From: a phage
Sequence record: PX418922.1
Reading direction: 5' to 3' (one strand)
Length of the DNA stretch: 64,000 bases
This document shows, in pieces, positions 22,898 through 39,529 of the stretch. The notes below the pieces were generated by a model that worked only from the letters and a program-made list of their open reading frames with translations, had not been told where the DNA came from and made no database searches. Within the stretch, counting starts at the first letter, position 1; each line of letters opens with the position of its first letter. Both the position numbers and the translations under genes were made by a program.

Positions 22898-22898
22898 T

Positions 22899-23501: not shown

Positions 23502-23666
23502 ATGATCTCTTTAGAATCAATAGCTTTTAAGAAAGGGTATACCGCAGGGTTCAAGTTTGGTATGTTTAATAAAGTAAATCCATACTGTCCAATGACACAC
23601 AAAAAGGAATTTGAAGAATGGGAAGATGGATTTTCTAAAGGCTACCAGGCAAAGGGTTGGTTGTAA
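23502..23666 (+). CDS. small hypothetical protein
   Basis: Start moved to ATG after GAGGAG. Confidence 0.45.
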   Translation: MISLESIAFKKGYTAGFKFGMFNKVNPYCPMTHKKEFEEWEDGFSKGYQAKGWL

Positions 23667-23675
23667 GGAGAGAAT

Positions 23676-23840
23676 ATGATTTTAAACTTCATCATCAACT
23701 TGTGTTTGACATTGGGACTACTCTGTGCAATAGTATCCCCTCTGATTGGTGAATATTTTTCTGAACTGGCGATGTTTATAGTTCTTGGTGCGGCTGTTGC
23801 TAACATGTTTGTCGCTGCGATTTGTATGTTGTGGGAATAG
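23676..23840 (+). CDS. small hydrophobic membrane peptide (54 aa)
   Basis: Read manually; AGGAGAG upstream; below ORF-track cutoff. Confidence 0.35.
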   Translation: MILNFIINLCLTLGLLCAIVSPLIGEYFSELAMFIVLGAAVANMFVAAICMLWE

Positions 23841-23851
23841 GAGGGAAGTTT

Positions 23852-24208
23852 ATGAAAAAATTAATCTTAGCCACATTGCTGGCTACCGTAAGCTTCACCA
23901 CTTACGCTCAAAAATTTGTAGCAGTTAAAACAGATATTGGTAAAGATGTTGTGATCACAGGCAACAAGTTTTACTATACACCTGGAAATGGTGTTCTAGA
24001 AGAGTGTAAAGATGTTGAGGCATATACAGGAAAAGAAGATAACACGGAACGTCCTTTTTATTCGATTATAGCCACTTGCAAAAATGAAATAGTAGCTATT
24101 AAACAATATAAAGATGCCCCTGGAGGAGAATACTTATTAGTCAAGAATATTAAGAGTGAAAAAACTGCAAAGTTTACAGTAATTATTTTAAAAGGAGAAA
24201 CGTTCTAA
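23852..24208 (+). CDS. secreted hypothetical protein
   Basis: Start moved to MKKLILATLLATVSFTTYA signal peptide. Confidence 0.5.
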   Translation: MKKLILATLLATVSFTTYAQKFVAVKTDIGKDVVITGNKFYYTPGNGVLEECKDVEAYTGKEDNTERPFYSIIATCKNEIVAIKQYKDAPGGEYLLVKNIKSEKTAKFTVIILKGETF

Positions 24209-27499: not shown

Positions 27500-27740
27500 T
27501 ATTTTAACTTTTTTCATTTTTAGAACAAAGGTGTCACTTTGTAGCACAGAAATAAGGCTCCTACAGCACCGTAGAGAGCCTGTTATTTTGTCCTATACAA
27601 ACCCTTGTCTTTTTCAGTTTGCATCACTAGGATTCGATCTAAGTAGGTTCCTGAAGGTCTACCAATAAGATTAAAGGTTATCTCAAATTACCACTACCTG
27701 TTATCTCAAAAATTCCTCAAATTATTTAAACTTTTTAAGA

Positions 27741-27920
27741 ATTTACAAAAGTGAAAGTTGAAAACCAAAATTTAAAGTTTAGGAAAATTATCTTAAAATG
27801 TCAGATACAAAACAAAACTCAAAAGTCAAGGAAAATTTTAAAAATTTTGCGCGCCCACAGTATTTAAAGTTTTTTTGCTTTTACAAAAATGAAAGTACAA
27901 AAGCAAAATTTAAAGTTTAC
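27741..27920. repeat. two ~40-bp imperfect direct repeats in an AT-rich intergenic region
   Basis: TTTACAAAAGTGAAAGTTGAAAACCAAAATTTAAAGTTTA (27741-27780) and TTTTACAAAAATGAAAGTACAAAAGCAAAATTTAAAGTTTAC (27879-27920). Confidence 0.6.
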
Positions 27921-27967
27921 AAAAATTTATGCAGATGGGAATGAGAAGAGTTCTCATGTGGAAATGC

Positions 27968-28046
27968 AAATGATAATGATTCGCATTTAGGTTTATAAAT
28001 GAGATTGATTCTTATTTAATAAAGTAAATGATAATCATTCTCATTT
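27968..28046. promoter_or_regulatory. three Fur-box-like palindromic sites
   Basis: AAATGATAATGATTCGCATTT, AAATGAGATTGATTCTTATTT, AAATGATAATCATTCTCATTT; core GATAATCATTCTC is 1 mismatch from the Fur-box 3' 13-mer. Confidence 0.4.
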
Positions 28047-28304
28047 AGAGAATGACGCGCAGGGGCGGTGTTTGTCTCGCGCTCCCGTGTCCCCTCGCCA
28101 TGTACTAAGAATAACAGATCCAGCCAGGAAAGCAAGCGATTATTTTATCTTTACATTTCTTTACAAATATATAGCGCCCAGCCTACCGGCGATCAACCTT
28201 CCAACCAGTGCCCCTGGTATGTTAGCCCCGCCTTTACGCCGTGGGGTGGCGCTTCCTCTTCTGTATGTAAAACAGTATAAGCCCTATCCCTGGGCTTGTC
28301 AAGA

Positions 28305-28571
28305 TTATTTTTTGTTTTCTTGCCAGGTCAGGACACCTAGCCAAAAATGAATATCACCTTTTCCCCAATGTGGTATATTGCTTTCTTTCCCACCTTCACG
28401 CGCCCAGGTAAAACCGCCCGTGTAACTTTGTAATTGATAACTATCCTCGACCTTATAATCTGATAGGTTGAGAACGGTTTCAACCTTTAAGCCCGTTGCG
28501 CTTGCTACCTGGTGCACCGTGCCGCCTTGCCAGCCCAATGAGTGCATAAGATGTAATGTAGTATTTGTCAT
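28305..28571 (-). CDS. hypothetical protein (88 aa), GC-rich
   Basis: ORF track; AAGGG upstream; lies in an otherwise non-coding stretch, so uncertain. Confidence 0.3.
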   Translation of the reverse strand: MTNTTLHLMHSLGWQGGTVHQVASATGLKVETVLNLSDYKVEDSYQLQSYTGGFTWAREGGKESNIPHWGKGDIHFWLGVLTWQENKK

Positions 28572-28680
28572 GGTGTCGCCCTTTCTTTGTTGTGCGCCCT
28601 GGTTGGCGCGGTAGAAAGATGATAGCCCTTTCCTTTATATATAGCAAGCAAAAAGAAAATAAAAAAGATTGAAAAAGTGG

Positions 28681-28738
28681 TTGACGTTCGCCAGGTGGCG
28701 GCATAATATTTACCACGTAGCGCGGCAATGGTGCCGCT
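28681..28738 (+). promoter_or_regulatory. island promoter + 5' leader hairpin (P1)
   Basis: TTGACG-N17-TAATAT-TTACCAC-GTAG then hairpin GCGGCA-ATGG-TGCCGC. Confidence 0.55.
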
Positions 28739-28758
28739 CACTATTTGGAGTTAAGATC

Positions 28759-28956
28759 ATGGCAACATTGCACATTGTGGCGAAAGCTGGACAAATCAAC
28801 GTAATAGTAAACGGTTTTACTGAGTTCAGTCATCCCCAGGATGATCATGAAACGGTTTTATCTTTCATTGATTCCCTGTTAGAAATGGGAGTCATTACAG
28901 AAGACCAGCACGCTACAAAATGCAAGCGCGTTAATCAAATTGCAGGGATAGAATAA
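28759..28956 (+). CDS. island small protein (65 aa)
   Basis: ATG after GGAG; ORF-track frame trimmed so the start is downstream of the leader hairpin. Confidence 0.5.
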   Translation: MATLHIVAKAGQINVIVNGFTEFSHPQDDHETVLSFIDSLLEMGVITEDQHATKCKRVNQIAGIE

Positions 28957-28962
28957 AAAGTA

Positions 28963-29017
28963 TTGACAACAAACAACAACCTGATAAGATGTATCACATA
29001 GGGGCGACAAGCGCCCC
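28963..29017 (+). promoter_or_regulatory. island promoter + 5' leader hairpin (P2)
   Basis: TTGACA-N16-TAAGAT-GTATCAC-ATAG then hairpin GGGGCG-ACAA-GCGCCCC. Confidence 0.55.
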
Positions 29018-29041
29018 GCCTAACAGAAGAGAGAAATCATC

Positions 29042-29314
29042 ATGGCATCATATAGCGCAACAATGATCGTAACTGGCACCACTGGTAAACCTATGAGCGG
29101 TGGCGGATCTTTCGCTAATATTAATATTGACGGGCGCTTATCCCTGGACGCAGCGATCACCGTGGCGCGGGAAACATTTAAGAAAGAATGTAAATTCAAT
29201 AAACAAGATTATCTCGGTTTCGCTATTGAAAAAACCGCGCGCTTTGTTGATTATAAAAGCCCGAAAATGGTTGATACTACACTGAAAGCGCAAGATGTAG
29301 CCTTTTTGCTTTAA
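29042..29314 (+). CDS. island small protein (90 aa), Gly-rich N-terminus
   Basis: ORF track; AGAGAGA RBS. Confidence 0.55.
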   Translation: MASYSATMIVTGTTGKPMSGGGSFANINIDGRLSLDAAITVARETFKKECKFNKQDYLGFAIEKTARFVDYKSPKMVDTTLKAQDVAFLL

Positions 29315-29317
29315 GGC

Positions 29318-29371
29318 TTGACATTAACGAATAATTTGTTAATATGTTACATAAAGCGGGAATAGTTCCCG
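29318..29371 (+). promoter_or_regulatory. island promoter + 5' leader hairpin (P3)
   Basis: TTGACA-N16-TAATAT-GTTACAT then hairpin GCGGGAA-TAG-TTCCCGC. Confidence 0.55.
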
Positions 29372-29390
29372 CTATTTGTAAGGTGGTAGA

Positions 29391-29648
29391 ATGTTTTACA
29401 TCAAATTAAAAGGTCACGTGATCGCGTTCAAAGATAACGCTTTTTACAGATTAGCAAAATATGCGTTAATACATCCCCACTATGTTTATATAAGGGGGCG
29501 TGATGAAATAAATATTTTTGATCAAACAACATGCGAAAACATCGAGATCCGCAAGGTTGGCGTACGTGATTATCGTACATCTTTCTACCCTTGCAAGGAT
29601 TCAGCAAGTCTTTTTAAAGTATGCCAATTGTTGAAAAAAGGTGGTTAA
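29391..29648 (+). CDS. island small protein (85 aa)
   Basis: ORF track. Confidence 0.55.
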   Translation: MFYIKLKGHVIAFKDNAFYRLAKYALIHPHYVYIRGRDEINIFDQTTCENIEIRKVGVRDYRTSFYPCKDSASLFKVCQLLKKGG

Positions 29649-29649
29649 T

Positions 29650-30207
29650 ATGGGCCGCGAATATGTGATCCAGTCTTGGGTAAAACATGAAGCAGATGAT
29701 CCGCGCATCATTCCCGATCATCTTATCGATGAATCCACGGGATATAGCGGTGAGCAAATAGGTAACAGATTAGCACGTAGTAACGGCAACGTAAAAGCGC
29801 GTTATGTGCGCCCTGGCTGGCTGGCAAATGGTAACGCTGATTTATCCAGTGCGGAAGATGCGAGCGACGGCGCGAAAGATAATCCTTTGTACAAAATTGA
29901 TCCGGCTTTTCGTGTCCTGGATGAATACCCCAGCAAGATAGCGGCGCTCGATCAGGCCCTGGAAAGTAAGCGCATCACCTGGACCGCTTACAACATGGCA
30001 AAAAACGTACTTGATGGTAAATTGATTCAAGCTGAAAGAAAATTAGCCAAAATTGCAGCCATAACCCAGGAGGAAGACGAGGAGACAACGGAAGAGGAAG
30101 AGTACGAAGAGATCCCGCCGTTGTTGTGTGTTGATGCTTTCCCTGATTATCAGCCGACAGAGGAAGAAAAAAGGATCGCACTAGAAAACTTTGAAAATAG
30201 TCTTTGA
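29650..30207 (+). CDS. island protein with acidic C-terminal tail (185 aa)
   Basis: ATG after AAAGGTGG; C-terminus EEDEETTEEEEYEE; no own promoter. Confidence 0.5.
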   Translation: MGREYVIQSWVKHEADDPRIIPDHLIDESTGYSGEQIGNRLARSNGNVKARYVRPGWLANGNADLSSAEDASDGAKDNPLYKIDPAFRVLDEYPSKIAALDQALESKRITWTAYNMAKNVLDGKLIQAERKLAKIAAITQEEDEETTEEEEYEEIPPLLCVDAFPDYQPTEEEKRIALENFENSL

Positions 30208-30260
30208 CATATCGCCGCCACTGGCATAATATTTACCACGTAGGGCGGCAATGGTGCCGC
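30204..30260 (+). promoter_or_regulatory. island promoter + 5' leader hairpin (P4)
   Basis: TTGACA-N17-ATAATA-TTTACCAC-GTAG then GCGGCA-ATGG-TGCCGC. Confidence 0.55.
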
Positions 30261-30289
30261 TCATAGTGAAATTATGCAAGAGGTTTGCA

Positions 30290-30385
30290 ATGATTAATAA
30301 AGAAAATAGCTTGACGGTTGGAACGATTAACGCTATCATTCTTGCCGTTCCATTTTGGATTGTATTAGCGGCTATTATTTTCTAA
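30290..30385 (+). CDS. hydrophobic micro-protein (31 aa)
   Basis: MINKENSLTVGTINAIILAVPFWIVLAAIIF; only coding capacity downstream of P4. Confidence 0.35.
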   Translation: MINKENSLTVGTINAIILAVPFWIVLAAIIF

Positions 30386-30394
30386 AAAATATTC

Positions 30395-30455
30395 TTGACA
30401 ACGTTTTTTAATCTGATAAGATGTATCACATAGGGCGGCGGAATACTTCCCCGCC
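30395..30455 (+). promoter_or_regulatory. island promoter + 5' leader hairpin (P5)
   Basis: TTGACA-N16-TAAGAT-GTATCAC-ATAG then GGCGG..GGAA-TAC-TTCC.CCGCC. Confidence 0.55.
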
Positions 30456-30476
30456 AAAACAAAAAAGGGTAACACA

Positions 30477-30839
30477 ATGAGCAAGCAAATCAATACTATC
30501 ATGTTTAATCTGGTATCTTTCCGCGATGATATGAAAAATTTACCACGTGAAACGGTTGATATTCATGTTTCAGCTTATCGCGCCCTTATTGATATGTTAC
30601 CGCTAAAACGTGATCAACATGCCGCTAATATGATGCTTAATGCTATGCTTAAAAAGATGATTCAAACGGATCTCACCCTGGCGTATGAGTATCAAGGGCG
30701 CTTATATGCAACTTACAACAAGGCGGTACCTGGTCTGGGAAGTACCGAAGAGTTGCACGGCTTAAACCTGGATCAAAACACTTGGGATAGTATGCGCCGC
30801 GTTATGGTATGGGCCGAAAGCGGTAAAATTTACGAATAA
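30477..30839 (+). CDS. island small protein (120 aa)
   Basis: ORF track. Confidence 0.55.
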   Translation: MSKQINTIMFNLVSFRDDMKNLPRETVDIHVSAYRALIDMLPLKRDQHAANMMLNAMLKKMIQTDLTLAYEYQGRLYATYNKAVPGLGSTEELHGLNLDQNTWDSMRRVMVWAESGKIYE

Positions 30840-30844
30840 AAACG

Positions 30845-30902
30845 GTTGACATTGTTTAAAATTCTAGTATAGTTTACCACATAGGGCGGGAAGTGGTTTC
30901 CC
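30845..30902 (+). promoter_or_regulatory. island promoter + 5' leader hairpin (P6)
   Basis: TTGACA-N16-TATAGT-TTACCAC-ATAG then GCGGGAA-GTGG-TTTCCCGC. Confidence 0.55.
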
Positions 30903-30927
30903 GCCAACAATGAAAAAGGTTATCATC

Positions 30928-31293
30928 ATGGCTATTAATATTAATGTTTCCGCTTATGCTACCCTGGCTAACACGGCTAAAATTGAATTATCCAGCATTG
31001 AGGCGGTGCATATTAGCGCCCGTCGCTGGTTTCAACGGTCCTACGGTAACACATATTTTTCTTTAATGGTTGACGTTGAGATCGGCGGTAAACTGATCGA
31101 GGTGGTTAACGTTCCGTTTCAATATGGCTATGGTGATCATTTTGATACCGTCGCCCTAGAAGAGTTTAGCAAGGTTATCAACCTGGAAGGTAAAGAGTTT
31201 TCAAATTATGCCTACCTTTCCCGTTTTTGCCGTGACAATGGGATCACTGTATACAGTCATGCGAGCGATGTAAAACGTAAAAAAGATTTATAA
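30928..31293 (+). CDS. island small protein (121 aa)
   Basis: Second in-frame ATG chosen (AAAAAGG upstream); the first ATG abuts the hairpin. Confidence 0.5.
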   Translation: MAININVSAYATLANTAKIELSSIEAVHISARRWFQRSYGNTYFSLMVDVEIGGKLIEVVNVPFQYGYGDHFDTVALEEFSKVINLEGKEFSNYAYLSRFCRDNGITVYSHASDVKRKKDL

Positions 31294-31299
31294 AAAGCA

Positions 31300-31360
31300 T
31301 TGACAGCACGAATAAAAAGAGTAAACTGTATTACATAGAGAGCGGGAACACTTCCCGCCT
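31300..31360 (+). promoter_or_regulatory. island promoter + 5' leader hairpin (P7)
   Basis: TTGACA-N17-TAAACT-GTATTAC-ATAG then GCGGGAA-CAC-TTCCCGC. Confidence 0.55.
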
Positions 31361-31382
31361 CACTGAAAAAGAGAGAAAAATC

Positions 31383-31622
31383 ATGGCTAAATCTAAAATG
31401 TACAACGGTCACAAAAACAAAACTCATTGGAATGTAAGCCTTTGGATTAATAACGATGAATCGTTATACCGGTTGGCCCAAGATTTTATTAACGCTAATG
31501 CTAATCGTAATGATGCGGCGCGGGATATGATGCTTTTTCTGGAACAAACTGGACAAGATAAAACGCCAGACGGTTTCAAATATAGCACTACTGCGATCCG
31601 TGCCGCGATGGTTGGAATGTAA
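31383..31622 (+). CDS. island small protein (79 aa)
   Basis: ORF track. Confidence 0.55.
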   Translation: MAKSKMYNGHKNKTHWNVSLWINNDESLYRLAQDFINANANRNDAARDMMLFLEQTGQDKTPDGFKYSTTAIRAAMVGM

Positions 31623-31631
31623 TAAAAACAG

Positions 31632-31689
31632 TTGACAACGTTTAAAATTAGTGTAAGATGTATCACATAGGGCGGGAAGTGGTTTCCCG
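31632..31689 (+). promoter_or_regulatory. island promoter + 5' leader hairpin (P8)
   Basis: TTGACA-N16-TAAGAT-GTATCAC-ATAG then GCGGGAA-GTGG-TTTCCCGC. Confidence 0.55.
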
Positions 31690-31712
31690 CCAAAACAAAG
31701 AGATTAAAGATT

Positions 31713-31940
31713 ATGGCTATCAATATTGTTCGCGTATCCGGCACCGTTGGCACTTCCCAGGTTATTGCAGTTGTAACAAACAAAAAGATTAATGATGTAT
31801 GTGAGATCTTGAATAAGTGGGCTATTGCTAATTTTGGGGAATATGCAAGCGTCGAGTACATCGAATCCTACCAGGTGCCAACCATCAGCCTAACCGATCT
31901 CAACGTTGATCGCCTGTTATGCCTGGATGAATTGATCTGA
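31713..31940 (+). CDS. island small protein (75 aa)
   Basis: ORF track. Confidence 0.55.
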   Translation: MAINIVRVSGTVGTSQVIAVVTNKKINDVCEILNKWAIANFGEYASVEYIESYQVPTISLTDLNVDRLLCLDELI

Positions 31941-31949
31941 AAAAGATTG

Positions 31950-32006
31950 TTGACACCGGAAAGAAAAAGAGTAAACTGTATTACGTAGGGCGGCAATGGT
32001 GCCGCT
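31950..32006 (+). promoter_or_regulatory. island promoter + 5' leader hairpin (P9)
   Basis: TTGACA-N17-TAAACT-GTATTAC-GTAG then GCGGCA-ATGG-TGCCGC. Confidence 0.55.
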
Positions 32007-32030
32007 CACAACAAAAGAGAGATTATTACG

Positions 32031-32243
32031 ATGGCTAATATCCGCACACTGTTAAAAAATGCAAGTCAAGTTTTATTTTCAGATGACGAGTATTTCAATA
32101 AAGACATTACAGGCGTGAAGAATATCAAAGATGTAAAAAGTGTTATGGGTATATATTGCAATGTTAAACGTGTTGGAACGTTCGGTGATAAAGTATTGTA
32201 CCAATCAGGTGATTACAATTTTACTTTGACGATTATTTCATAA
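32031..32243 (+). CDS. island small protein (70 aa)
   Basis: ORF track. Confidence 0.55.
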   Translation: MANIRTLLKNASQVLFSDDEYFNKDITGVKNIKDVKSVMGIYCNVKRVGTFGDKVLYQSGDYNFTLTIIS

Positions 32244-32248
32244 AACGC

Positions 32249-32310
32249 TTGCAATACTGCAAAAATAAAGTAAACTGTATTACATCAAGGCGGCGGAATG
32301 GTCCACCGCC
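32249..32310 (+). promoter_or_regulatory. island promoter + 5' leader hairpin (P10)
   Basis: TTGCAA-N16-TAAACT-GTATTAC-ATCAA then GGCGGCGGA-ATGG-TCCACCGCC. Confidence 0.5.
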
Positions 32311-32334
32311 TAACAAAGAGAAGAGGAAAATATC

Positions 32335-32502
32335 ATGATCACTTTCGCTACCCGTGAAGCCGCTCGCAACGTTGCACGTAAAGTTAACGCCGCCAACCTG
32401 GGCGCTACTTTTAAAGCGCCTGTAAAAGATGAATCAGGAAAATGGATCTTCCCTGGTCTGCGTCACGCTGATAAGCTAGGCACTTTAAGCCTTAAAAAAT
32501 AA
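32335..32502 (+). CDS. island small protein (55 aa)
   Basis: Read manually (MITFATREAARNVARK...); AGAGAAGAGG upstream; shares MITFA N-terminus with the next gene. Confidence 0.4.
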   Translation: MITFATREAARNVARKVNAANLGATFKAPVKDESGKWIFPGLRHADKLGTLSLKK

Positions 32503-32505
32503 TCG

Positions 32506-32540
32506 TTGACTTTTCGTTATAGCGCCCATTATAAGGCGCT
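32506..32540 (+). promoter_or_regulatory. island promoter with variant hairpin (P11)
   Basis: TTGACT then hairpin AGCGCC-CATTATAA-GGCGCT; -10 element unclear. Confidence 0.35.
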
Positions 32541-32576
32541 ATAGAGAAGAGAAACCACTACTAACAAGGAAACATC

Positions 32577-32798
32577 ATGATCACTTTCGCTATTGTCGCC
32601 GTTGTCGCTGGTCAGGTTTACGTAAACGATACATTCACCACAGAAGACAAGGCCGCAGGAGACATAACCGCCGTTTACAATGAGTGCAAGGCAGTAGAAA
32701 GGATGTTAGCGCCTTGTATGTTAATGAGTGAACGCCAGGACGGGATAACAGTGTTTACTAACATTGAAACAGGGTACCAAATGGTAGTAACAAAATAA
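32577..32798 (+). CDS. island small protein (73 aa), hydrophobic N-terminus
   Basis: ORF track. Confidence 0.5.
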   Translation: MITFAIVAVVAGQVYVNDTFTTEDKAAGDITAVYNECKAVERMLAPCMLMSERQDGITVFTNIETGYQMVVTK

Positions 32799-32801
32799 AG
32801 C

Positions 32802-32858
32802 TTGACACGGATTTAATTTTCAGTAAACTGTTACACGTAGGGCGGGAATAGTTCCCGC
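32802..32858 (+). promoter_or_regulatory. island promoter + 5' leader hairpin (P12)
   Basis: TTGACA-N16-TAAACT-GTTACAC-GTAG then GCGGGAA-TAG-TTCCCGC. Confidence 0.55.
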
Positions 32859-32876
32859 TAAAAAGAGAGAAAGACC

Positions 32877-33230
32877 ATGAAAGCACAAAATGCAATTAAA
32901 GAGTACATCCTTGCCGCTATCGATTTTAATGATTACGGTATTACAACCGAAAAAGAGAAGATCGCGGAATTGATGCGCCGTTTTAATTCCGAGTACTGGT
33001 ACCCTGATAATCAATCACGTTTTAATTATAGTATTGTTAAAGCACTTGCATCATGGTTACAAGGCTTGCCATCAGATATTAATATAGCTTTCGAATATTG
33101 GGAAATTGATCGTTTGTTAACATCCTGGGGATACATTAAAGAGAATAGCAGCGATGATAAAATCCAACGAGAAAGGGAAAATTATTGGCTTTATATTGCA
33201 GGCGTGATCCTTGCTTGCTCTTATGAATGA
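32877..33230 (+). CDS. island small protein (117 aa)
   Basis: ORF track. Confidence 0.55.
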   Translation: MKAQNAIKEYILAAIDFNDYGITTEKEKIAELMRRFNSEYWYPDNQSRFNYSIVKALASWLQGLPSDINIAFEYWEIDRLLTSWGYIKENSSDDKIQRERENYWLYIAGVILACSYE

Positions 33231-33236
33231 TAAACC

Positions 33237-33289
33237 TTGACAATTTTACAAAACAGTTTAAATTAATAATATAGCGGCAATGGTGCCGC
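33237..33289 (+). promoter_or_regulatory. island promoter + 5' leader hairpin (P13)
   Basis: TTGACA-N16-TAAATT then GCGGCA-ATGG-TGCCGC. Confidence 0.5.
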
Positions 33290-33309
33290 TCATATAAAGA
33301 GGAAACAAA

Positions 33310-33456
33310 ATGAATACATCTAATCGCGCAGAAAAAATTCAATCTTCCAAGATCCGCAAGGCCTGGAATGAGGAAGTGATCCGCAAAGGCGACAAGCGCA
33401 ATAAAACAAAGCGCGGGAAGAGTGACAAATATAATTGGATGGATTTAGAGGATTAA
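33310..33456 (+). CDS. highly basic micro-protein (48 aa)
   Basis: Read manually (MNTSNRAEKIQSSKIRKAW...KRNKTKRGKSDKYNW); terminator follows. Confidence 0.4.
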   Translation: MNTSNRAEKIQSSKIRKAWNEEVIRKGDKRNKTKRGKSDKYNWMDLED

Positions 33457-33464
33457 CATAACAA

Positions 33465-33490
33465 GGGCGCACCAAGCGCCCTTTCTTTTT
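33465..33490 (+). terminator. intrinsic terminator
   Basis: GGGCGC-ACCAA-GCGCCC then TTTCTTTTT. Confidence 0.65.
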
Positions 33491-33511
33491 ACATGTAGAG
33501 GATAAACAAAA

Positions 33512-33697
33512 ATGACTTTAAACGAGCTTAAAACAGCCTATAACGCAACATTAAAAATAGCCGTGCGTTACCGTGACGAATACGGTTTTATTGCGCAGGG
33601 CGTGATCCTGGGCTTTTCTGACGATGGTTTGATCTATGTTGATGCACATCACAACAAGGTTAAACCGGAAAACGTTATCAGTATAAAATATCTTTAA
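33512..33697 (+). CDS. island small protein (61 aa)
   Basis: ORF track; GAGGATAA upstream. Confidence 0.45.
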   Translation: MTLNELKTAYNATLKIAVRYRDEYGFIAQGVILGFSDDGLIYVDAHHNKVKPENVISIKYL

Positions 33698-33703
33698 AAG
33701 TGG

Positions 33704-33760
33704 TTGACACCATAACCGGACCTGTTAAACTGTATTACATCAGGCGGGGAATAGTTCCCC
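33704..33760 (+). promoter_or_regulatory. island promoter + 5' leader hairpin (P14)
   Basis: TTGACA-N16-TAAACT-GTATTAC-ATCAG then GGGGAA-TAG-TTCCCC. Confidence 0.55.
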
Positions 33761-33783
33761 AACCATACAAAAAGGTAAATATT

Positions 33784-33990
33784 ATGATCACCGCAAAACA
33801 AGAAAAAATCATTATCGACGTTGCAGCCGTTGCCGCTATTGCTATTATTGGATCTTATTATGATACCCGTTTCCCGTCGGCTATGCATGAGATCGCCGCC
33901 GTTGCATCAGTTGGCGTGCTGTTTTACGTTGGTAAACGCTATTTATCACCAATGATTAACAAGCTGACACCGTGGAAAAATAAAGGTTGA
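33784..33990 (+). CDS. island small membrane protein (68 aa)
   Basis: Start moved downstream of hairpin; hydrophobic AAVAAIAIIG segment. Confidence 0.5.
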   Translation: MITAKQEKIIIDVAAVAAIAIIGSYYDTRFPSAMHEIAAVASVGVLFYVGKRYLSPMINKLTPWKNKG

Positions 33991-34041
33991 TCCTGTTTTA
34001 TATTGTGTTATAGTTATCGTGTAGGGCGGCAATGGTGCCGC
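33987..34041 (+). promoter_or_regulatory. island promoter + 5' leader hairpin (P15)
   Basis: TTGATC-N16-TATAGT-TATCGT-GTAG then GCGGCA-ATGG-TGCCGC. Confidence 0.5.
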
Positions 34042-34061
34042 GCCCCTTTGAGGATGCAATC

Positions 34062-34346
34062 ATGAGTAAAGCTAACACCGTGCTAATGTTTTCCCTGATT
34101 AATGATCCCGCTTACTTGTCCAACATGACGCAGGAGGGTAACACATTAACGGCAACATTCACCAATAAGCTTGACCGAGTGATCATCATCTCACTGAAAA
34201 CAGTTAGTAAAGGCTTTTACTCGTTAGCTTATCATTGGATCACTGATACCGATGAGACAAGCCAGGACTATAGCGCCCCTTTCCCTGAATCAATGGCACG
34301 GGAGATCATCGCCGCCGTTGTAAATGATGGTTTGTTTACTGCATAA
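34062..34346 (+). CDS. island small protein (94 aa)
   Basis: Start moved to ATG downstream of hairpin. Confidence 0.5.
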   Translation: MSKANTVLMFSLINDPAYLSNMTQEGNTLTATFTNKLDRVIIISLKTVSKGFYSLAYHWITDTDETSQDYSAPFPESMAREIIAAVVNDGLFTA

Positions 34347-34363
34347 ATAATTTAGAAAAAGGC

Positions 34364-34422
34364 TTGCAATCATTTTGAGATAGTGTATATTTAATTCATA
34401 GGGCGGCGGGAATAGTTCCCAA
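34364..34422 (+). promoter_or_regulatory. island promoter + 5' leader hairpin (P16)
   Basis: TTGCAA-N16-TATATT-TAATTC-ATAG then GGGAA-TAG-TTCCC. Confidence 0.5.
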
Positions 34423-34443
34423 AGCAAACGAGAGGATTACACG

Positions 34444-34563
34444 ATGAGCAAGTACACAGTAGAATACACGGTAGAGAATCCGGCAGTATCCGAAGGTAAA
34501 AAGATGACATTTGCCATCAGTATAATCGCTTTCGTTGTCACTATCTTATCAATCATCTTATAA
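34444..34563 (+). CDS. hydrophobic micro-protein (39 aa)
   Basis: Read manually (MSKYTVEYTVENPAVSEGKKMTFAISIIAFVVTILSIIL). Confidence 0.35.
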   Translation: MSKYTVEYTVENPAVSEGKKMTFAISIIAFVVTILSIIL

Positions 34564-34573
34564 GGTACACACC

Positions 34574-34735
34574 ATGAAAATAACAGACATTATCAAAGAG
34601 ATCGCCCTTGCCGCTGGCGTTGAAGTCGAGGAAGTGATCGCGCTCAATCTTACAGAAAACGATCTGCGCAACTATGAAGCGGAAAGCGTGAAAGCAAGCG
34701 GCGCGGTCCTGGTATATGATCCGGCTAACAAGTAA
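34574..34735 (+). CDS. island small protein (53 aa)
   Basis: Start moved to MKITDII... Confidence 0.4.
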   Translation: MKITDIIKEIALAAGVEVEEVIALNLTENDLRNYEAESVKASGAVLVYDPANK

Positions 34736-34744
34736 GGGGGTAAC

Positions 34745-34855
34745 ATGAATCCGAAAGATATGCAAGCATGGAAAGGGTACGACGATCTAAGCGCCTTGCG
34801 CAATAAGTCAAGCCGTAACTTTAGACGGTTGGAAGCAAAGAAAAAGAAAAAATAG
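34745..34855 (+). CDS. basic micro-protein (36 aa)
   Basis: Read manually (MNPKDMQAWKGYDDLSALRNKSSRNFRRLEAKKKKK); GGGGG upstream. Confidence 0.35.
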   Translation: MNPKDMQAWKGYDDLSALRNKSSRNFRRLEAKKKKK

Positions 34856-34856
34856 T

Positions 34857-34912
34857 TTGACAAGTCCGCCTAGTCTGATAATATGTATCTTGTAGGGCGG
34901 CAATGGTGCCGC
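34857..34912 (+). promoter_or_regulatory. island promoter + 5' leader hairpin (P17)
   Basis: TTGACA-N16-TAATAT-GTATCTT-GTAG then GCGGCA-ATGG-TGCCGC. Confidence 0.55.
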
Positions 34913-34933
34913 TCACAAGAAGAGAGAAAAATC

Positions 34934-35218
34934 ATGAAAATTACAAAAAGCCTAACTAATTATGCAGCACGTCGCGGATTATGTTTAACCGTTGAAAACT
35001 TAGGGAAAGAAGACTTTTTGTGTTTTTGGGAGCTTGAGAATGATTGCGAGTGGATGTTTTCTTATTCTATCTGCGAAGATCAAAACGGTTGTTTGTTAAC
35101 CTGGCGCGGTAATATCTATTTACCGGAAGAAATTAAAGAAGAGTTACCAGGTACGATCATGACAGAGAGACAGCTTAAGGAAGTGATCAATTTTGTAGGG
35201 CAAAACATTAAAAAATAA
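34934..35218 (+). CDS. island small protein (94 aa)
   Basis: Start moved downstream of hairpin; AGAGAGA RBS. Confidence 0.5.
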   Translation: MKITKSLTNYAARRGLCLTVENLGKEDFLCFWELENDCEWMFSYSICEDQNGCLLTWRGNIYLPEEIKEELPGTIMTERQLKEVINFVGQNIKK

Positions 35219-35219
35219 T

Positions 35220-35280
35220 TTGACAGCAGGCAAACAACGTAGTAAAGTTTACCACATAGGGCGGCGGAATGGTCCACCGC
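35220..35280 (+). promoter_or_regulatory. island promoter + 5' leader hairpin (P18)
   Basis: TTGACA-N17-TAAAGT-TTACCAC-ATAG then GGCGGCGGA-ATGG-TCCACCGC. Confidence 0.55.
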
Positions 35281-35303
35281 TCACAACAGAAGAGAAACAA
35301 ATC

Positions 35304-35474
35304 ATGATCCCGACTATGTTTTATGTATCGCGCAAAGGTCACAATATTTTTTGGTCTGAAGATTTAAATGAAGCTATGACGTTTGCCCGTGATCGTGTTG
35401 CTATCGGTGGCGTTAACATCACCGTAACCGATGAAAATGGCATTGAATACTATAACGGCGACGATGAAGAATAA
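35304..35474 (+). CDS. island small protein (56 aa)
   Basis: Start moved to MIPTMFYV... Confidence 0.45.
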   Translation: MIPTMFYVSRKGHNIFWSEDLNEAMTFARDRVAIGGVNITVTDENGIEYYNGDDEE

Positions 35475-35479
35475 TTAAT

Positions 35480-35512
35480 GAGGCGGGGGAGTATTCCCCG
35501 CCGTCAATAAAG
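35480..35512 (+). promoter_or_regulatory. orphan leader-type hairpin with no recognisable promoter
   Basis: GGCGGGGGA-GTA-TTCCCCGCC immediately ahead of the RBS of 35522. Confidence 0.4.
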
Positions 35513-35521
35513 AGGTAAATC

Positions 35522-35791
35522 ATGAAAATATCATTAGACGTTGCAATCAAGGCCATCGAATCCGGTTACACCCTGGTAAAAGATGATAAGGCTAAAACCG
35601 TGCACCACGTTAACAAAGAAACAGGCGAAAGCATGATCACATATAAAGCCGCCTACTTTCTCCAATCAGTAGCAGATCCGCGCGTACAACGCCAGGTTAC
35701 AGCGGCTATTGCTAAAAAATTATGTGCTTTACAGGGCACAAGTTTTAACGAGATCGCCCCGTGTTTTGACTGGTCGAGCTTGAAAAAATAG
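35522..35791 (+). CDS. island small protein (89 aa)
   Basis: ORF track. Confidence 0.5.
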   Translation: MKISLDVAIKAIESGYTLVKDDKAKTVHHVNKETGESMITYKAAYFLQSVADPRVQRQVTAAIAKKLCALQGTSFNEIAPCFDWSSLKK

Positions 35792-35792
35792 T

Positions 35793-35845
35793 TTGACAAC
35801 AATTATAAATCGGGTAGAATGTATTTCGTAGGGCGGGGCAATGGT
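35793..35845 (+). promoter_or_regulatory. island promoter with degenerate hairpin (P19)
   Basis: TTGACA-N16-TAGAAT-GTATTTC-GTAG then GGGCGGGGCAATGGTGCAACGCC. Confidence 0.45.
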
Positions 35846-35872
35846 GCAACGCCTACTAATGAGGGTAAAATC

Positions 35873-35977
35873 ATGTTAGAGAAAATTTTCACGGTTGTAG
35901 TAGTGGGCCTGGTGTTATCGGTTGGAGTGGTTGCAACTATGGCTAACATGATCCTATCTTCCCACGGTATTGGATAA
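35873..35977 (+). CDS. hydrophobic micro-protein (34 aa)
   Basis: Read manually (MLEKIFTVVVVGLVLSVGVVATMANMILSSHGIG). Confidence 0.35.
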   Translation: MLEKIFTVVVVGLVLSVGVVATMANMILSSHGIG

Positions 35978-35987
35978 GGTGAATCAA

Positions 35988-36203
35988 ATGATCACGAATA
36001 AGACAGGTAAAACAGAATTTTTACGCGCCTTGCAGATCGGCAAGCCTGAGATCTGGCATTGCACTAAATCCGCGCATAATGAAATGAAAGATTTTACCGC
36101 TACTTTACAACGTGTTAAAATATCTATCACACAGAAAAAAGCCTTGTTAGTAGTAGAAAACGAGATCCCGCAAACTATTATTATTGTCGAGCGTACAGCA
36201 TGA
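35988..36203 (+). CDS. island small protein (71 aa)
   Basis: Start moved from TTG to the in-frame ATG. Confidence 0.45.
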   Translation: MITNKTGKTEFLRALQIGKPEIWHCTKSAHNEMKDFTATLQRVKISITQKKALLVVENEIPQTIIIVERTA

Positions 36204-36586
36204 AAACAGAAATCATTATTGAAATCATCAACGGTTATAAAGAAGCCTTTATTTTTGCTGAATCAGCAAGGGATCATGAAGGTAATTTTATTGATAACTT
36301 AGACGATTATGATTTTTCTCCTAGCGTGGATCAACGGATCGCCCAGGATGTAACAGCCTTTATTAATGCTAATCTTGCCGCTATCTCTGAGGCAATGAGC
36401 GACGGCGCAACAGCCAACCAGATCGGGAATGATTTACATTTTACCCGTAACGGTCACGGCGTAGGCTTTTGGGATCGCCCTGAAATATACACCACTAACA
36501 CGGCGAACCGCCTAACCAATGCAGCTAAGTTTATGCCGAACGTGTCGGCTTACATTGGTGAAGATAATTTGATTTATATTGAATAA
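36200..36586 (+). CDS. island small protein (128 aa)
   Basis: ORF track; ATGA coupling. Confidence 0.5.
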   Translation: MKTEIIIEIINGYKEAFIFAESARDHEGNFIDNLDDYDFSPSVDQRIAQDVTAFINANLAAISEAMSDGATANQIGNDLHFTRNGHGVGFWDRPEIYTTNTANRLTNAAKFMPNVSAYIGEDNLIYIE

Positions 36587-36592
36587 AAAGTA

Positions 36593-36650
36593 TTGACACC
36601 GATCCCCAATATGGTACTATTTACCACGTAGGCGGGAAATGGTTTCCCGC
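36593..36650 (+). promoter_or_regulatory. island promoter + 5' leader hairpin (P20)
   Basis: TTGACA-N16-TACTAT-TTACCAC-GTAG then GCGGGAA-ATGG-TTTCCCGC. Confidence 0.55.
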
Positions 36651-36674
36651 CAGGTAATCAAAAAGGTAAATACT

Positions 36675-37064
36675 ATGCGCAACCTGGTTTCTGTTTCTAA
36701 CGTTGAAAAATTTCAATCTTTACAGGGTATCGTTAACAACGTAGCGCCTTTTTTAGTCAACGGCTTGATTGCAAAGATGAAAAATAAACATCATGCGGCA
36801 TGGTCTGCTTACTGCTTTGATAATGATGAAAAAGCGGCTGAAATGATGTTAAATATGCTGTTAGACAGTGTAGAATCATCTTTACCGGAAAACATCGCAG
36901 AAGAGATCACCTATCGTTATAATATGGCGATCACTTACCAGGAGGTTGCGCAATTTAATATGATGGACGATGACGAACAACAGGATCAGGAAATGTTTTG
37001 GGAGTATGCTGATCGTCAATCGGCTTTTGATGAAAAATTAGCGATGTATTATAACGAATATTAA
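36675..37064 (+). CDS. island small protein (129 aa)
   Basis: Start moved downstream of hairpin. Confidence 0.5.
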   Translation: MRNLVSVSNVEKFQSLQGIVNNVAPFLVNGLIAKMKNKHHAAWSAYCFDNDEKAAEMMLNMLLDSVESSLPENIAEEITYRYNMAITYQEVAQFNMMDDDEQQDQEMFWEYADRQSAFDEKLAMYYNEY

Positions 37065-37080
37065 TACACGGTAAAAGAAA

Positions 37081-37105
37081 GGGGCGCACTAAGCGCCCTT
37101 TTTTG
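37081..37105 (+). terminator. intrinsic terminator
   Basis: GGGCGC-ACTAA-GCGCCC then TTTTTTG. Confidence 0.65.
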
Positions 37106-37448
37106 TATTCTTTTTTCACGATGGAAACAACACGTAAAGAATAGGCGTAAAGGTGGCGTAAAACCATCTAAAACCGACTGTAACCGCTTAAACAAGGTAG
37201 GAATGATTAATCACCTTGCCAGGATGAAAAAGCCGTTATAAAGCTATCTAGAGCGTTTAAAGCACATAGGAAATAATTTGCTTTTTATCTTGCCTTTTAC
37301 CCTGCTTTTGATTATTATTATGGAACGGGCGGCACCTGGAGACAGGGGAAGATAATCACCGGAAGATCCCGCTATATATTGATAGCTAATACCTATTAAA
37401 CAACAAAACATCAAAGGAATAAACTATCAAATCTTTACAATTCTACCT

Positions 37449-37495
37449 ATTGACACCGGATCGCCCTTATACTAAGATGTATCACGTAGGGCAAA
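37449..37495 (+). promoter_or_regulatory. island promoter without clear hairpin (P21)
   Basis: TTGACA-N17-TAAGAT-GTATCAC-GTAGGGC; hairpin degenerate. Confidence 0.45.
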
Positions 37496-37524
37496 TGATT
37501 TTAAACGGTAAACGAGGAATCACC

Positions 37525-37908
37525 ATGAGCAATATCATCAACCTGGCAGCGACTGTAAACGGTAAAGACTTTAACGGCGCTGTAGACCGTGATCCTATGT
37601 GGTACTTGTCAGTGTTTAAAGGCGATCTGGTTGAAGTTAGAACAACCGAAGGGTATAGCGATGATTATAAATGCGAGATTCATTTACATAATTGGTACAC
37701 GGGTAAAACTTATGCGCTGAATCACGCGTTTATCGGAAAAATCGAATATCGTGAGATGATCGACGAAGAAACGGGGCAAGATTTTAGCGAAAACGTTTAT
37801 ATTCGTTCCGAGACATTAGCCGAACGTTTGATCGAGAAAATGAAAGCAAAAAATAAAATTAATTTATCTCATTGGATTGATATAACAAACGATCCAGCTT
37901 ATCAGTAA
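37525..37908 (+). CDS. island small protein (127 aa)
   Basis: Start moved to MSNIINLAAT... Confidence 0.5.
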   Translation: MSNIINLAATVNGKDFNGAVDRDPMWYLSVFKGDLVEVRTTEGYSDDYKCEIHLHNWYTGKTYALNHAFIGKIEYREMIDEETGQDFSENVYIRSETLAERLIEKMKAKNKINLSHWIDITNDPAYQ

Positions 37909-37924
37909 ATAACATTTCATACCA

Positions 37925-37950
37925 GGGCGCACAAAGCGCCCTTTCTTTTT
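37925..37950 (+). terminator. intrinsic terminator closing the island
   Basis: GGGCGC-ACAAA-GCGCCC then TTTCTTTTT. Confidence 0.65.
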
Positions 37951-39529
37951 GCCCGAACAATGTTGATAGATTCCGCCTATGGAAAACCGACACAGAACAA
38001 AACTGAATAAATAGCGGTATCAAGCTAATCAACCATTAAATGAATAACCATACCTCCCAGGGTAACAGGCTGTTAGAGAGCCATTTAAAGCGGTTAAAAT
38101 CGATCAACAACCAACAACAAACCATCAAAAACACCCTTTTACCTCCTTTCTAGTGCAATGATAACCATTATCATCTATCCATGTTTATCTATACAATATA
38201 AGTGCATAATTATAATGTTGATAATAGTTCGCAACAACTAACCAACAAACAACATAAAACAATAAGCAAACTAATCATAATCAAAGGAATAATAGCAAGA
38301 TGATTGATAACAACAAACAATCAAACCATGATGAATACTAAGCAAGATAACGATAACACGACAAAACAACCAACTAACGAACAATAACAAACGAAACCAT
38401 TAAAATAATAACTATTGCCATAATAGTGACTAAATGAAATCATTACAAAACGAATCATTCACAGAGTCATCATTAGCACGCTATGCCGGACACATAGCGA
38501 GCTAATAATAAGCCAACTACACCCCAACAATCATAACCATCGGTGATGGTTATTTCTTGTTACTGCGTAGCTTGCAATAATTGCAAGCGTAATGACGCTT
38601 ACACTTATTGCGCTGGCTTATTATTAGCATTATATGTAATTACCAAGATCATAACATTAGCGCAATAACAATAATCATTGTGGTAATTACGTAAGGAAAC
38701 AATTAGCATGGCAATAATTATGGGGCAATGGGAGGATGATTATCATCATTCCGATACATTGCACACTATGCACATAATAGAATAAAAAGCAATAATTTTG
38801 GGGGCGAAATGTTACCGCCACAGGCGGGAATGTTGAGCACTAAGAAAAGAGATAAACCTTAATCATGGGGGCGTAAATATCCGCAGGATTGCCAACGGCG
38901 ATCCGGTAGGATGTTGAGCATCTTCTCTTAAACGTAAATAAAATCAGAAAATTCTTGATTTATTTTAGTTTTTATGTTAATAAACGTTTAAATAATAATC
39001 ATTCTCATATAAATAATAGTCTGCTTGTCATGAGCGGGATTAGTTGACAATGTTCCGTCATATGATGAAGTTGCCAACCTATTGATAAATAAGTGTTTGT
39101 GTGATTTATAATCAAGTGGCCCACCTTGTCGCTACGTTGGCATAAGCCTTGCATAAGTCATTGAATACGAATGATAATTATTCTCATTCGCATGATATTT
39201 GGGAATTGTCGCTGCGTGGACCTGACGGCCCGAAAATTCGCGTTAAGCACTTCTTACGTATGCGCCATGATTTTTGCCATATGATATTGATTCTATTAGA
39301 TATTCTTGCCATGATTGCCATGAAACAGGGTGTCCCGAAATAATCTTTCCCCGTAGATATTTTGGGTTACTTTTTATACAAGAGTGGGGTGTCAAAAATA
39401 ATCGGTATATATGGGATAATTGATAGGAATCCCCTATGATAATTCGATTGTAATTCCCTGAGATTGATCGTATGATGTTGGTGATTGATGATTGCCATGA
39501 AAGATGGCTAACGATGAGAGGAGATTATC
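37951..39529. other. 1.6-kb non-coding, repeat-rich region with strand-skewed A+C content
   Basis: No ORF of 60 aa or more; CAACAA/ACAAAC low-complexity runs; palindromes; Fur-box-like sites at 38991-39010 and 39169-39189. Confidence 0.5.
38570..38588. repeat. 19-bp palindrome
   Basis: GCTTGCAAT-A-ATTGCAAGC, 9-bp arms. Confidence 0.6.

Follow-up and report, generated by a model that had tools for sequence, protein, structure and literature searches.

Cassettes of the promoter-early stem-loop (PeSL) kind have been described in the T4-type phages RB49/phi1, PST/T4, and nt-1/KVP40 (Arbiol et al. 2010, PMC2839356; Comeau et al. 2014, PMC4122927). Arbiol et al. proposed that PeSLs attenuate transcription and measured this for one RB49 stem-loop (PMC2839356); mini-circles are also described as products of recombination at PeSLs. 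Other hairpins are known to act on RNA stability. Stem-loops at the 5' terminus stabilise E. coli mRNAs (Emory 1992, Bouvet & Belasco 1992, and Arnold 1998, cited through PMC3997798), and an intercistronic stem-loop together with a following RNase E site stabilises the upstream cistron (PMC10667835). Here we analyse a 64,000-nucleotide (nt) stretch of phage DNA (sequence record PX418922.1, the window), in which a sigma70 promoter, a GC-rich hairpin, and a short leader recur as a unit in front of small early genes. The best reading of this promoter-hairpin-leader unit is a repeated, exchangeable PeSL-like early-gene cassette. The cassette is real, under selection, and spans several lineages; it is best regarded as a variant of the PeSL kind.

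The early array occupies about 8 kb of the + strand (28681-36651), where 19-20 tandem promoter-hairpin modules lie among genes for hypothetical proteins of 30-190 aa. Modules were called by a -35 hexamer with at most one mismatch (or TTGCAA or TTGATC), a spacer of 16-17 nt, a TAnnnT -10 hexamer, and folding of the next 40 nt. The scan of 28681-36651 returned 19 modules, 17 with clear hairpins and two with degenerate ones (34364 and 35793), where the initial annotation had described about 18 promoters with a leader hairpin. The stems quoted there are also present: GCGGCAATGGTGCCGC occurs in six copies versus 0.00 expected in shuffles, GGCGGGAAGTGGTTTCCCGCC in two, and GGCGGCGGAATGGTCCACCGC(C/T) in two, with a C.A mismatch. 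One further module, likewise foreseen, lies on the - strand (7149-7091) ahead of a gene identified as TerC by PF03741 (E = 3e-40). A sigma70 promoter scan combined with folding found nothing comparable elsewhere in the 64 kb. The modules of the window are as follows (-35/spacer length/-10; discriminator and following bases where they were recorded; z, folding of the leader from its predicted start relative to dinucleotide shuffles).

28681-28737, + strand: module 1, TTGACG/17/TAATAT, TTACCAC-GTAG, hairpin GCGGCA-ATGG-TGCCGC (28722-28737), ATG at 28759, z -0.96
28963-29017, + strand: module 2, TTGACA/16/TAAGAT, GTATCAC-ATA, hairpin GGGGCG-ACAAG-CGCCCC, ATG at 29042, z -3.18; three other hairpins at the orthologous sites in relatives
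29318-29373, + strand: module 3, TTGACA/16/TAATAT, hairpin AGCGGGAA-TAG-TTCCCGCT, ATG at 29391
30204-30262, + strand: module 4, TTGACA/17/TAATAT, TTACCAC-GTA, hairpin GGGCGGCA-ATGG-TGCCGCTC, ATG at 30290; stop codon of the preceding gene overlaps the -35
30395-30455, + strand: module 5, TTGACA/16/TAAGAT, hairpin GGCGG(C)GGAA-TAC-TTCCCCGCC with one bulge, ATG at 30477
30846-30905, + strand: module 6, TTGACA/16/TATAGT, TTACCAC-ATAG, hairpin GGCGGGAA-GTGGT-TTCCCGCC, ATG at 30928, z -3.15
31300-31361, + strand: module 7, TTGACA/16/TAAACT, GTATTAC-ATA, hairpin GAG(A)GCGGGAA-CAC-TTCCCGCCTC, ATG at 31383 (DUF7249 protein), z -4.35
31632-31691, + strand: module 8, TTGACA/16/TAAGAT, GTATCAC-ATAG, hairpin GGCGGGAA-GTGGT-TTCCCGCC, ATG at 31713, z -3.41
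31950-32009, + strand: module 9, TTGACA/16/TAAACT, hairpin GT(A)GGGCGGCA-ATGG-TGCCGCTCAC, paired from the predicted +1, ATG at 32031, z -4.20
32249-32311, + strand: module 10, TTGCAA/16/TAAACT, GTATTAC-ATCA (flavour like that of phage 121Q), hairpin AGGCGG(C)GGA-ATGG-TCC(A)CCGCCT, ATG at 32335, z -3.44
32802-32859, + strand: module 11, TTGACA/16/TAAACT, hairpin GGCGGGAA-TAG-TTCCCGCT, ATG at 32877, z -3.23
33237-33295, + strand: module 12, TTGACA/16/TAAATT, hairpin AGCGGCA-ATGG-TGCCGCT 8-9 nt past the -10, ATG at 33310; true terminator downstream at 33463-33483
33704-33760, + strand: module 13, TTGACA/16/TAAACT, hairpin GGGGAA-TAG-TTCCCC with one eroded base, ATG at 33784, z -1.73
33987-34041, + strand: module 14, TTGATC/16/TATAGT, hairpin GCGGCA-ATGG-TGCCGC, ATG at 34062, z -0.63
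34364-34420, + strand: module 15, degenerate, TTGCAA/16/TATATT, pairing left only in GGGAA-TAG-TTCCC, ATG at 34444, z -1.07
34857-34920, + strand: module 16, TTGACA/16/TAATAT, extended hairpin around GGGCGGCA-ATGG-TGCCGCTC, ATG at 34934, z -5.40
35220-35282, + strand: module 17, TTGACA/17/TAAAGT, TTACCAC-ATA, hairpin GGGCGG(C)GGA-ATGG-TCC(A)CCGCTC, ATG at 35304, z -3.68
35793-35856, + strand: module 18, TTGACA/16/TAGAAT, imperfect hairpin GTAGG-GCG-GG-GCA-ATGG-TGC-AA-CGC-CTAC, paired from the predicted +1, ATG at 35873, z -2.71
36593-36651, + strand: module 19, TTGACA/16/TACTAT, TTACCAC-GTA, hairpin GGCGGGAAA-TGG-TTTCCCGCC, ATG at 36675, z -3.77
7091-7149, - strand: TerC module, TTGACA/16/TAAGAT with the -35 at 7149, GTATCAC-ATGAG, hairpin GCGGGGA-GTGGT-TCCCCGC (7109-7091), ATG at 7071, z -3.24

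The order of elements within a module is constant: an A-rich tract, TTGACA, 16-17 nt, TAnnnT, a 7-nt discriminator, Y-R-T, the GC hairpin, a leader with a Shine-Dalgarno (SD) sequence, and ATG. The -35 hexamer is exactly TTGACA in 15 of the 19 window modules, and the discriminator reads GTATCAC, GTATTAC, or TTACCAC. The 20 nt 5' of the -35 are 75% AT versus 61% across the window, and the stop codon of the preceding gene falls within this A-rich tract, at -4 to +17 nt relative to the -35. Counting from the -10, 80% of distinct modules have a pyrimidine at position 7, 84% a purine at position 8, and 78% a T at position 9. Y-R-T is the preferred transcription start context in E. coli. Therefore, we placed +1 at the conserved purine 8 nt past the -10, where, to judge from the sequence, host RNA polymerase should start. 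Across nine phages, 104 of 124 modules have the hairpin 9-12 nt past the -10, which bears out the position just 3' of the -10 that the initial annotation had given. From this distance and the Y-R-T start, the hairpin is predicted to start between about +1 and +5 of the mRNA and to end near +25. Relative to the predicted start, 0-5 nucleotides are left unpaired at the 5' end in 15 of the 19 window modules, and pairing reaches the predicted +1 in three (31950, 34857, and 35793). The other side of the hairpin is similarly fixed, with 16-25 nt between its 3' end and the ATG in 92% of modules. This part of the leader is purine-rich (54% A and 16% T, with 11% T over the first 12 nt) and carries an SD sequence of the AAGAGAG or AAAGGT type. 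The 5' arm of the hairpin is 85% purine and its orientation is always the same.

The module stem-loops have folding free energies of -10 to -21 kcal/mol. Of 20 leaders folded from the predicted start, 14 have z between -2.7 and -5.4. Two are near z -1.8 (starts 30430 and 33739), and folding is weak, with z -0.6 to -1.1, in modules 28681, 33987, and 34364 (starts 28717, 34022, and 34399). Module 35793 has a good overall fold but a poor core stem. For covariation we used 38 distinct hairpins from the window and ten related loci as centre-anchored 21-nt windows, because stem lengths differ and a whole-module MAFFT alignment had put the 3' arms out of register. Eight of the nine pairs change on both sides, and 88% of cells are paired versus 70.8% in shuffles; this percentage is partly circular because the hairpins were picked by folding energy, but the measures of partner matching are not. 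Double-changed cells number 50 against 17.5 +/- 3.0 in shuffles. The covariation score is 0.475 versus 0.187 in shuffles (0/500 shuffles reach it) and 0.07-0.14 in slid registers, part of the signal being symmetric length changes in both arms.

Whole hairpins are also exchanged at a single site. Before the gene starting MASYSA, the promoter, discriminator, and leader are identical in six phages, and four different hairpins stand between them: GGGGCG-ACAAG-CGCCCC in the window, GGGCGGGAA-GTGG-TTTCCCGCTC in anhysbys and Schickermooser, GGGCGGCGGAA-TGG-TTCAGCCGCTC in nepoznato, and GGGCGGCA-ATAG-TGCCGCTC in VEcB and Nernie. The earlier suggestion that structure rather than stem sequence is conserved, with compensatory changes that a comparison across related genomes should reveal, thus holds by the covariation score, the double-changed cells, and these hairpin swaps. 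Between relatives, the -35 changes at 0.3% of positions, stems at 4.7% (a value inflated by whole-hairpin swaps), coding sequence at 4.7%, and loops and promoter spacers both at 10.6%. Therefore, the stems are constrained and the loops are not. Internal juxtapositions comprise 19 G.T and 8 A.C, many of shared ancestry and with bulges disturbing the register, and the sense strand folds better in 29 unique hairpins and worse in nine, many of which again share ancestry.

Over the 6 kb around the array, identity is 97% with Escherichia phage anhysbys and 94-98% with many other genomes of Phapecoctavirus (phAPEC8/ESCO13 group, Stephanstirmvirinae). The counterpart stretch in anhysbys is a run of small hypothetical genes with gaps of ~80-95 nt, preceded by ~800 nt of non-coding DNA and followed by tightly packed operons. 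BLAST of 28000-38500 against six relatives gave 43 unique homology breakpoints inside the array. Eighteen of these fall within the -35-to-hairpin modules, which make up 17% of the sequence (p = 1e-4), and 29 lie at -21 to +92 relative to a -35. Module 36593 illustrates such a junction. The preceding gene and the promoter are common to all six phages, but from GTAGG onwards they carry one of three hairpin-plus-gene combinations; anhysbys has exchanged the hairpin jointly with the gene behind it. Wherever gene content differs, the hairpin stays with the downstream gene.

The initial annotation had called the element phage-wide. This has to be narrowed, as both a covariance model run over the window and a scan of the whole anhysbys genome place the hairpin only in the early ORFan array and at TerC. 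With the covariance model and no filters, all matches in the window with E < 0.5 lie in 28.7-36.7 kb or at TerC, and sense-strand scores exceed antisense scores by 4-12 bits. In anhysbys (149 kb, assembled from four stretches), ~23 modules lie at 44.0-53.4 kb and one at TerC. About 20 other sigma70-like promoters with SD and ATG in that genome have leaders of 27-33 nt, none with a hairpin of this family. Since these promoters of the same genome lack it, the hairpin is a class feature of the early array.

The same cassette grammar is found in Justusliebigvirus (VEcB, Nernie, PD211, and phi92), in Klebsiella phage FBKp34, and in the Vequintavirinae Murica, Salmonella SSBI34, and Cronobacter CR9. 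The unrelated jumbo phage 121Q holds at least 13 copies in 12 kb (11900-24688) with its own flavour, namely TTGCAA, TATAAT, GTTTTACATCA, and stems such as GGGGAGAA/TTCTCCCC. In addition, 121Q and the window have at least two cassette genes in common (window 30486-31622, ~76% identity). Sharing of genes by a phage with its own cassette array suggests that cassettes are exchanged between unrelated coliphage lineages. In the early arrays of SSBI34 and CR9, hairpin modules are mixed with a hairpin-less class in which TATAAT-GGGCGGC-ATAG is followed by a purine-rich leader; because this class exists, the CATAG start motif is older and more widespread than the hairpin. In the library of papers that was searched, we found no description of the hairpin element for phAPEC8, phi92, rV5, PVP-SE1, 121Q, or CBB.

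Some copies depart from the common layout, and they are listed here together with a promoter that faces away from the array.

35482-35502, + strand: promoterless family hairpin, GGCGGGGGA-GTAT-TCCCCGCC, stop codon 8 nt upstream, next SD/ATG at 35522
32506-32544, + strand: variant promoter with inverted-repeat arms AGCGCC/GGCGCT around the -10, PeSL class 'overlapping -10'
37450-37495, + strand: hairpin-less recombinant module, TTGACA/17/TAAGAT-GTATCAC-GTAGGGC, then unrelated sequence
28585-28647, - strand: divergent promoter, TTGCTA/17/TATCAT, leader hairpin GCGCC-AACCAG-GGCGC, ATG at 28571; other stem type, same layout

The promoterless hairpin is kept in four relatives of two genera. At 32506 the arms flank the -10, and the hairpin therefore cannot form in the promoter's own transcript. 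Its 8-nt loop CATTATAA is present as the reverse complement TTATAATG in anhysbys and nepoznato, and the flipped form keeps a -10-like hexamer. These two copies indicate that the hairpin is not just a 5'-end feature. In the module at 37450, homology to relatives ends at 37492, within the former 5' arm. The promoter of module 1 is divergent from the - strand promoter at 28647, and the -35/-10 spacer of module 1 contains a small hairpin, CGCC-AGGT-GGCG (28688-28701), which matches the PeSL subclass 'between the hexamers'.

Several candidate identities of the hairpin were set aside. It was rejected as an intrinsic terminator: the 8 nt past the stem average 1.1 T and 4.7 A, and without a U tract the module hairpins are not terminators of this kind. 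No module hairpin passes a terminator scan that does recover the true terminators at 33463, 37076, and 37924. A nut-type boxA-boxB element was rejected, with no boxA near the modules and variable loops. Rfam 15 gives no match at gathering score in the window, and in 28500-37800 one sub-threshold match at chance level (L2-leader). A pseudoknot between the loop R-TGG-T and the upstream ACCAC was dropped because R-TGG loops also occur with other discriminators and not just in all five TTACCAC modules, and because ACCAC lies 5' of the predicted start.

We propose that the hairpin protects or insulates the leader at the RNA level and that the module doubles as a recombination patch, a proposal that in our judgement is about evenly poised between right and wrong. 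A role in the RNA leader is reasonable because the hairpin lacks a U tract and is sited in the predicted leader. The cassette comprises an UP-like A-rich tract, a sigma70 promoter, the start context Y-1 R+1 U+2, the hairpin, a U-poor leader with SD, and the start codon of a small ORFan. If the RNA folds in vivo as predicted, the few unpaired 5' nucleotides and a hairpin abutting the ribosome-binding region would leave little naked leader. The hairpin should thereby hinder 5'-end-dependent decay of the cassette's own transcript by RppH/RNase E, and should keep folding of the leader and ribosome-binding site independent of the upstream sequence. Since no terminators separate the cassettes, it would also be intercistronic in read-through RNA, where, after cleavage, it could stop 3'-to-5' exonucleases, that is, act in selective RNA processing and stabilisation (SRPS). 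At the DNA level, the ~60 bp conserved module may serve as a portable homology patch, through which recombination would swap hairpins or hairpin-leader-gene units between phages, in the way described for the PeSLs of T4-type phages.

A number of points weigh against this proposal. Transcription starting inside or past the stem would defeat the idea of 5' protection, and we found no transcriptome or start-site map for these phage groups in the library of papers that was searched. Work of Emory, Belasco, and Foley is said to put 3-5 unpaired nucleotides at the edge of what blocks RppH/RNase E. The hairpins at 35482-35502 and 32506 cannot act as 5'-terminal hairpins, and the recombinant at 37450 and the hairpin-less class of the Salmonella and Cronobacter phages mean that the hairpin is dispensable for expression as such. 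The wobble test for pairing in RNA rather than DNA is weak. In addition, the fixed spacing may come partly from common descent of the whole module and not from selection.

Four rival explanations were weighed. In attenuation of the PeSL type, the hairpin would terminate or attenuate transcription arriving from upstream and thereby keep read-through from accumulating along a series of strong promoters. The tandem cassettes would suit such a device, with 12 promoters and one terminator in 28681-33463, and a RB49 PeSL stem-loop cut lacZ read-through about as much as rrnB T1 (PMC2839356); the promoterless hairpin at 35482 and the arrangement at 32506 also fit a role on read-through RNA. However, no U tract follows any module hairpin, and none was picked up in the terminator scan. 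Lying 3' of its own start site, the hairpin would equally cut its own transcript, whereas the PST and nt-1 PeSL stem-loops sit 5' of the promoter, the sensible place for an attenuator. We consider attenuation quite improbable. A hairpin that is only a processing and stabilisation barrier, SRPS-like or like a repetitive extragenic palindromic (REP) element, would become the protective 3' end of the upstream cistron after cleavage of the leader. Its position between cistrons that must be co-transcribed, the conservation of the promoterless copy in two genera, and stem energies of -12 to -17 kcal/mol, a range bracketed by the weak (-9.3) and the strong (-25.4) stem-loop assayed in reporters in PMC10667835, are all in keeping with this role. 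It is nevertheless unlikely, as the leader past the hairpin is too poor in U to suit RNase E well, the gene with which the hairpin co-segregates is the downstream and not the upstream one, and a barrier needs no fixed distance to the -10 and the ATG, yet both distances are fixed.

Alternatively, a phage or host protein or RNA polymerase may bind the hairpin to control the early regulon, by nut/put-like antitermination, as a translational operator, or for a timed shut-off. The loops vary within one genome (ATGG, GTGG, TAG, CAC, TAC, and ACAAG) and change as fast as promoter spacers, stems vary in both sequence and length, and at one site entire hairpins replace one another, all of which is hard to reconcile with a binding site. 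Neither a boxA-like element near the modules nor an Rfam match was found, and twenty sites in 8 kb are unlike nut or put. These points make a site for a trans-acting factor quite unlikely, even though one leader element common to ~20 genes resembles a regulon tag, the purine-rich 5' arm keeps its orientation, the loops lean towards A-A/G-T-G/A-G-T, and the covariance model scores the sense strand higher. Pfam, run on 10 array proteins, matched only TerC and DUF7249 and offered no candidate RNA-binding partner. An element of DNA only, whether cruciform, recombination or template-switch site, or operator palindrome, with its presence in RNA incidental, we regard as very unlikely. The clustering of breakpoints in the modules, the junction within the 5' arm at 37492, the loop flip at 32506, which is a DNA-level event between the arms, and the PeSL crossovers mapped within stem-loops (PMC2839356) would agree with it. 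An operator palindrome, however, would keep its sequence and not just complementarity, and recombination needs the ~40 bp of conserved promoter and start region rather than the hairpin. That the hairpin keeps one orientation and constant distances from the start site and the ATG indicates a feature of the transcript, and G.T wobble exceeds A.C.

There is also a slim chance that the hairpin is a regulon-wide 5' RNA tag, which marks early cassette mRNAs for differential treatment and has been carried with cassettes among three unrelated coliphage lineages. Tagged early mRNAs could, for example, be spared during phage-accelerated, RNase E-dependent decay of host mRNA; rV5-type phages have been reported to carry a Srd-like gene. 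The tag could otherwise be a handle for a coordinated shut-off of all early genes. If so, any newly gained ORFan would at once be 'early and protected'.

The phAPEC8/phi92 and rV5 groups are widely used as candidates for therapy and biocontrol. About one fifth of the genes in these phages are small early ORFans of unknown function, and those in this array are all driven by the same cassette. Should the hairpin stabilise or insulate the transcript, as we propose, this would explain how a newly gained gene is expressed immediately in any genomic context, and the cassette would offer a compact, context-independent promoter-leader part for E. coli engineering. Should recombination occur at the module, it would explain the mosaic early regions in hundreds of sequenced relatives and would carry the PeSL idea past the T4-type phages, with jumbo phages among the partners in exchange. 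Natural variants, namely the interchangeable hairpins at one site, the hairpin-less recombinant, and the promoterless hairpin, are at hand as ready controls.

Other features were observed around the array and elsewhere. The non-coding DNA just 5' of the array (27500-28300) contains three copies of AATGAnAnnGATTCnnATTTAG, 29 nt apart (27940-28048), which make a 23-nt inverted repeat; one copy fits the E. coli Fur box at 16/19 positions. A 72-nt A/T-rich direct repeat is located at 27718 and 27856. This repeat-bearing region could be an origin or a regulatory region. Downstream, ~1.6 kb of A/C-rich DNA (37950-~39600), in which anhysbys has no annotated gene, is dotted with short repeats, both direct and inverted, and has a further stretch resembling a Fur box near 38157. 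A consensus promoter on the - strand (57724-57660, TTGACA/18/TATAGT) has a genuine U-tract terminator hairpin (AAAGCCTCCTGTTTCAGGGGGCTTTTCTTTT) no more than 15 nt behind it, ahead of the gene. Such promoter-then-terminator leaders also occur in anhysbys at 74822, 92835, 98320, and 99297 (- strand), and may serve as attenuators or be places where a terminator and a promoter overlap. Another promoter-like motif, unlike the early module, is present twice, at 20026 and 52690 (both - strand), and consists of TTGACT-N17-TACCCT and then ACGAGCGATAGCGAGTA.

Among the known systems, PeSL cassettes are closest to the modules of the window. In each, an AT-rich tract that includes the stop codon of the preceding gene leads into a near-consensus early promoter of the sigma70 type, followed by a stable GC stem-loop and then by an SD and the start of a small ORFan. 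Both are densely repeated in a hyperplastic early region of small ORFans, at places where closely related genomes differ by insertions, deletions, or replacements. Only two minority layouts in the window, the promoter at 32506 whose arms flank the -10 and the small hairpin in the spacer at 28688, match other PeSL subclasses. Of the anatomical and genomic traits by which PeSLs can be compared, all are present except the variable position of the stem-loop. PeSL stem-loops are variably placed, mostly between or over the hexamers or upstream and so in most copies outside the transcript of their own cassette, and have been read as terminators; here the hairpin is fixed 9-12 nt past the -10, inside its own transcript, and a terminator role is unlikely for want of a U tract. 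The lineages also differ, being Stephanstirmvirinae, Vequintavirinae, and Asteriusvirus and not T4-like, and BLAST detected no sequence similarity to T4-type phages.

The leader of T7 phi10 (gene 10) is arranged alike, with a 5' hairpin, then an A/U-rich spacer, then the SD. Similarly, the 5' stabilising hairpins of the ompA/papA type resemble the present ones in lying a few nucleotides from the (here predicted) 5' end, in having no sequence requirement, and in being closely followed by the ribosome-binding site with little naked leader. They belong to single genes with mapped 5' ends and measured half-lives, unlike the ~20 paralogous copies here, most of which have a predicted 3-5 unpaired nucleotides, borderline for full protection. 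With SRPS/REP-type elements (PMC10667835) the modules share a stable hairpin between co-transcribed cistrons and stem energies in the effective range. They differ in that the hairpin is tied to a promoter and a downstream gene and is followed by a U-poor leader, which is not a typical RNase E site. Finally, lambda nut (boxA/boxB) and HK022 put likewise place a promoter-proximal hairpin in the nascent RNA after a conserved linear motif. In the modules, that motif is the discriminator and start site, mostly untranscribed, neither loops nor stems are conserved (one genome has at least six different loops), boxA is absent, and ~20 copies stand against one or two per genome for nut and put.

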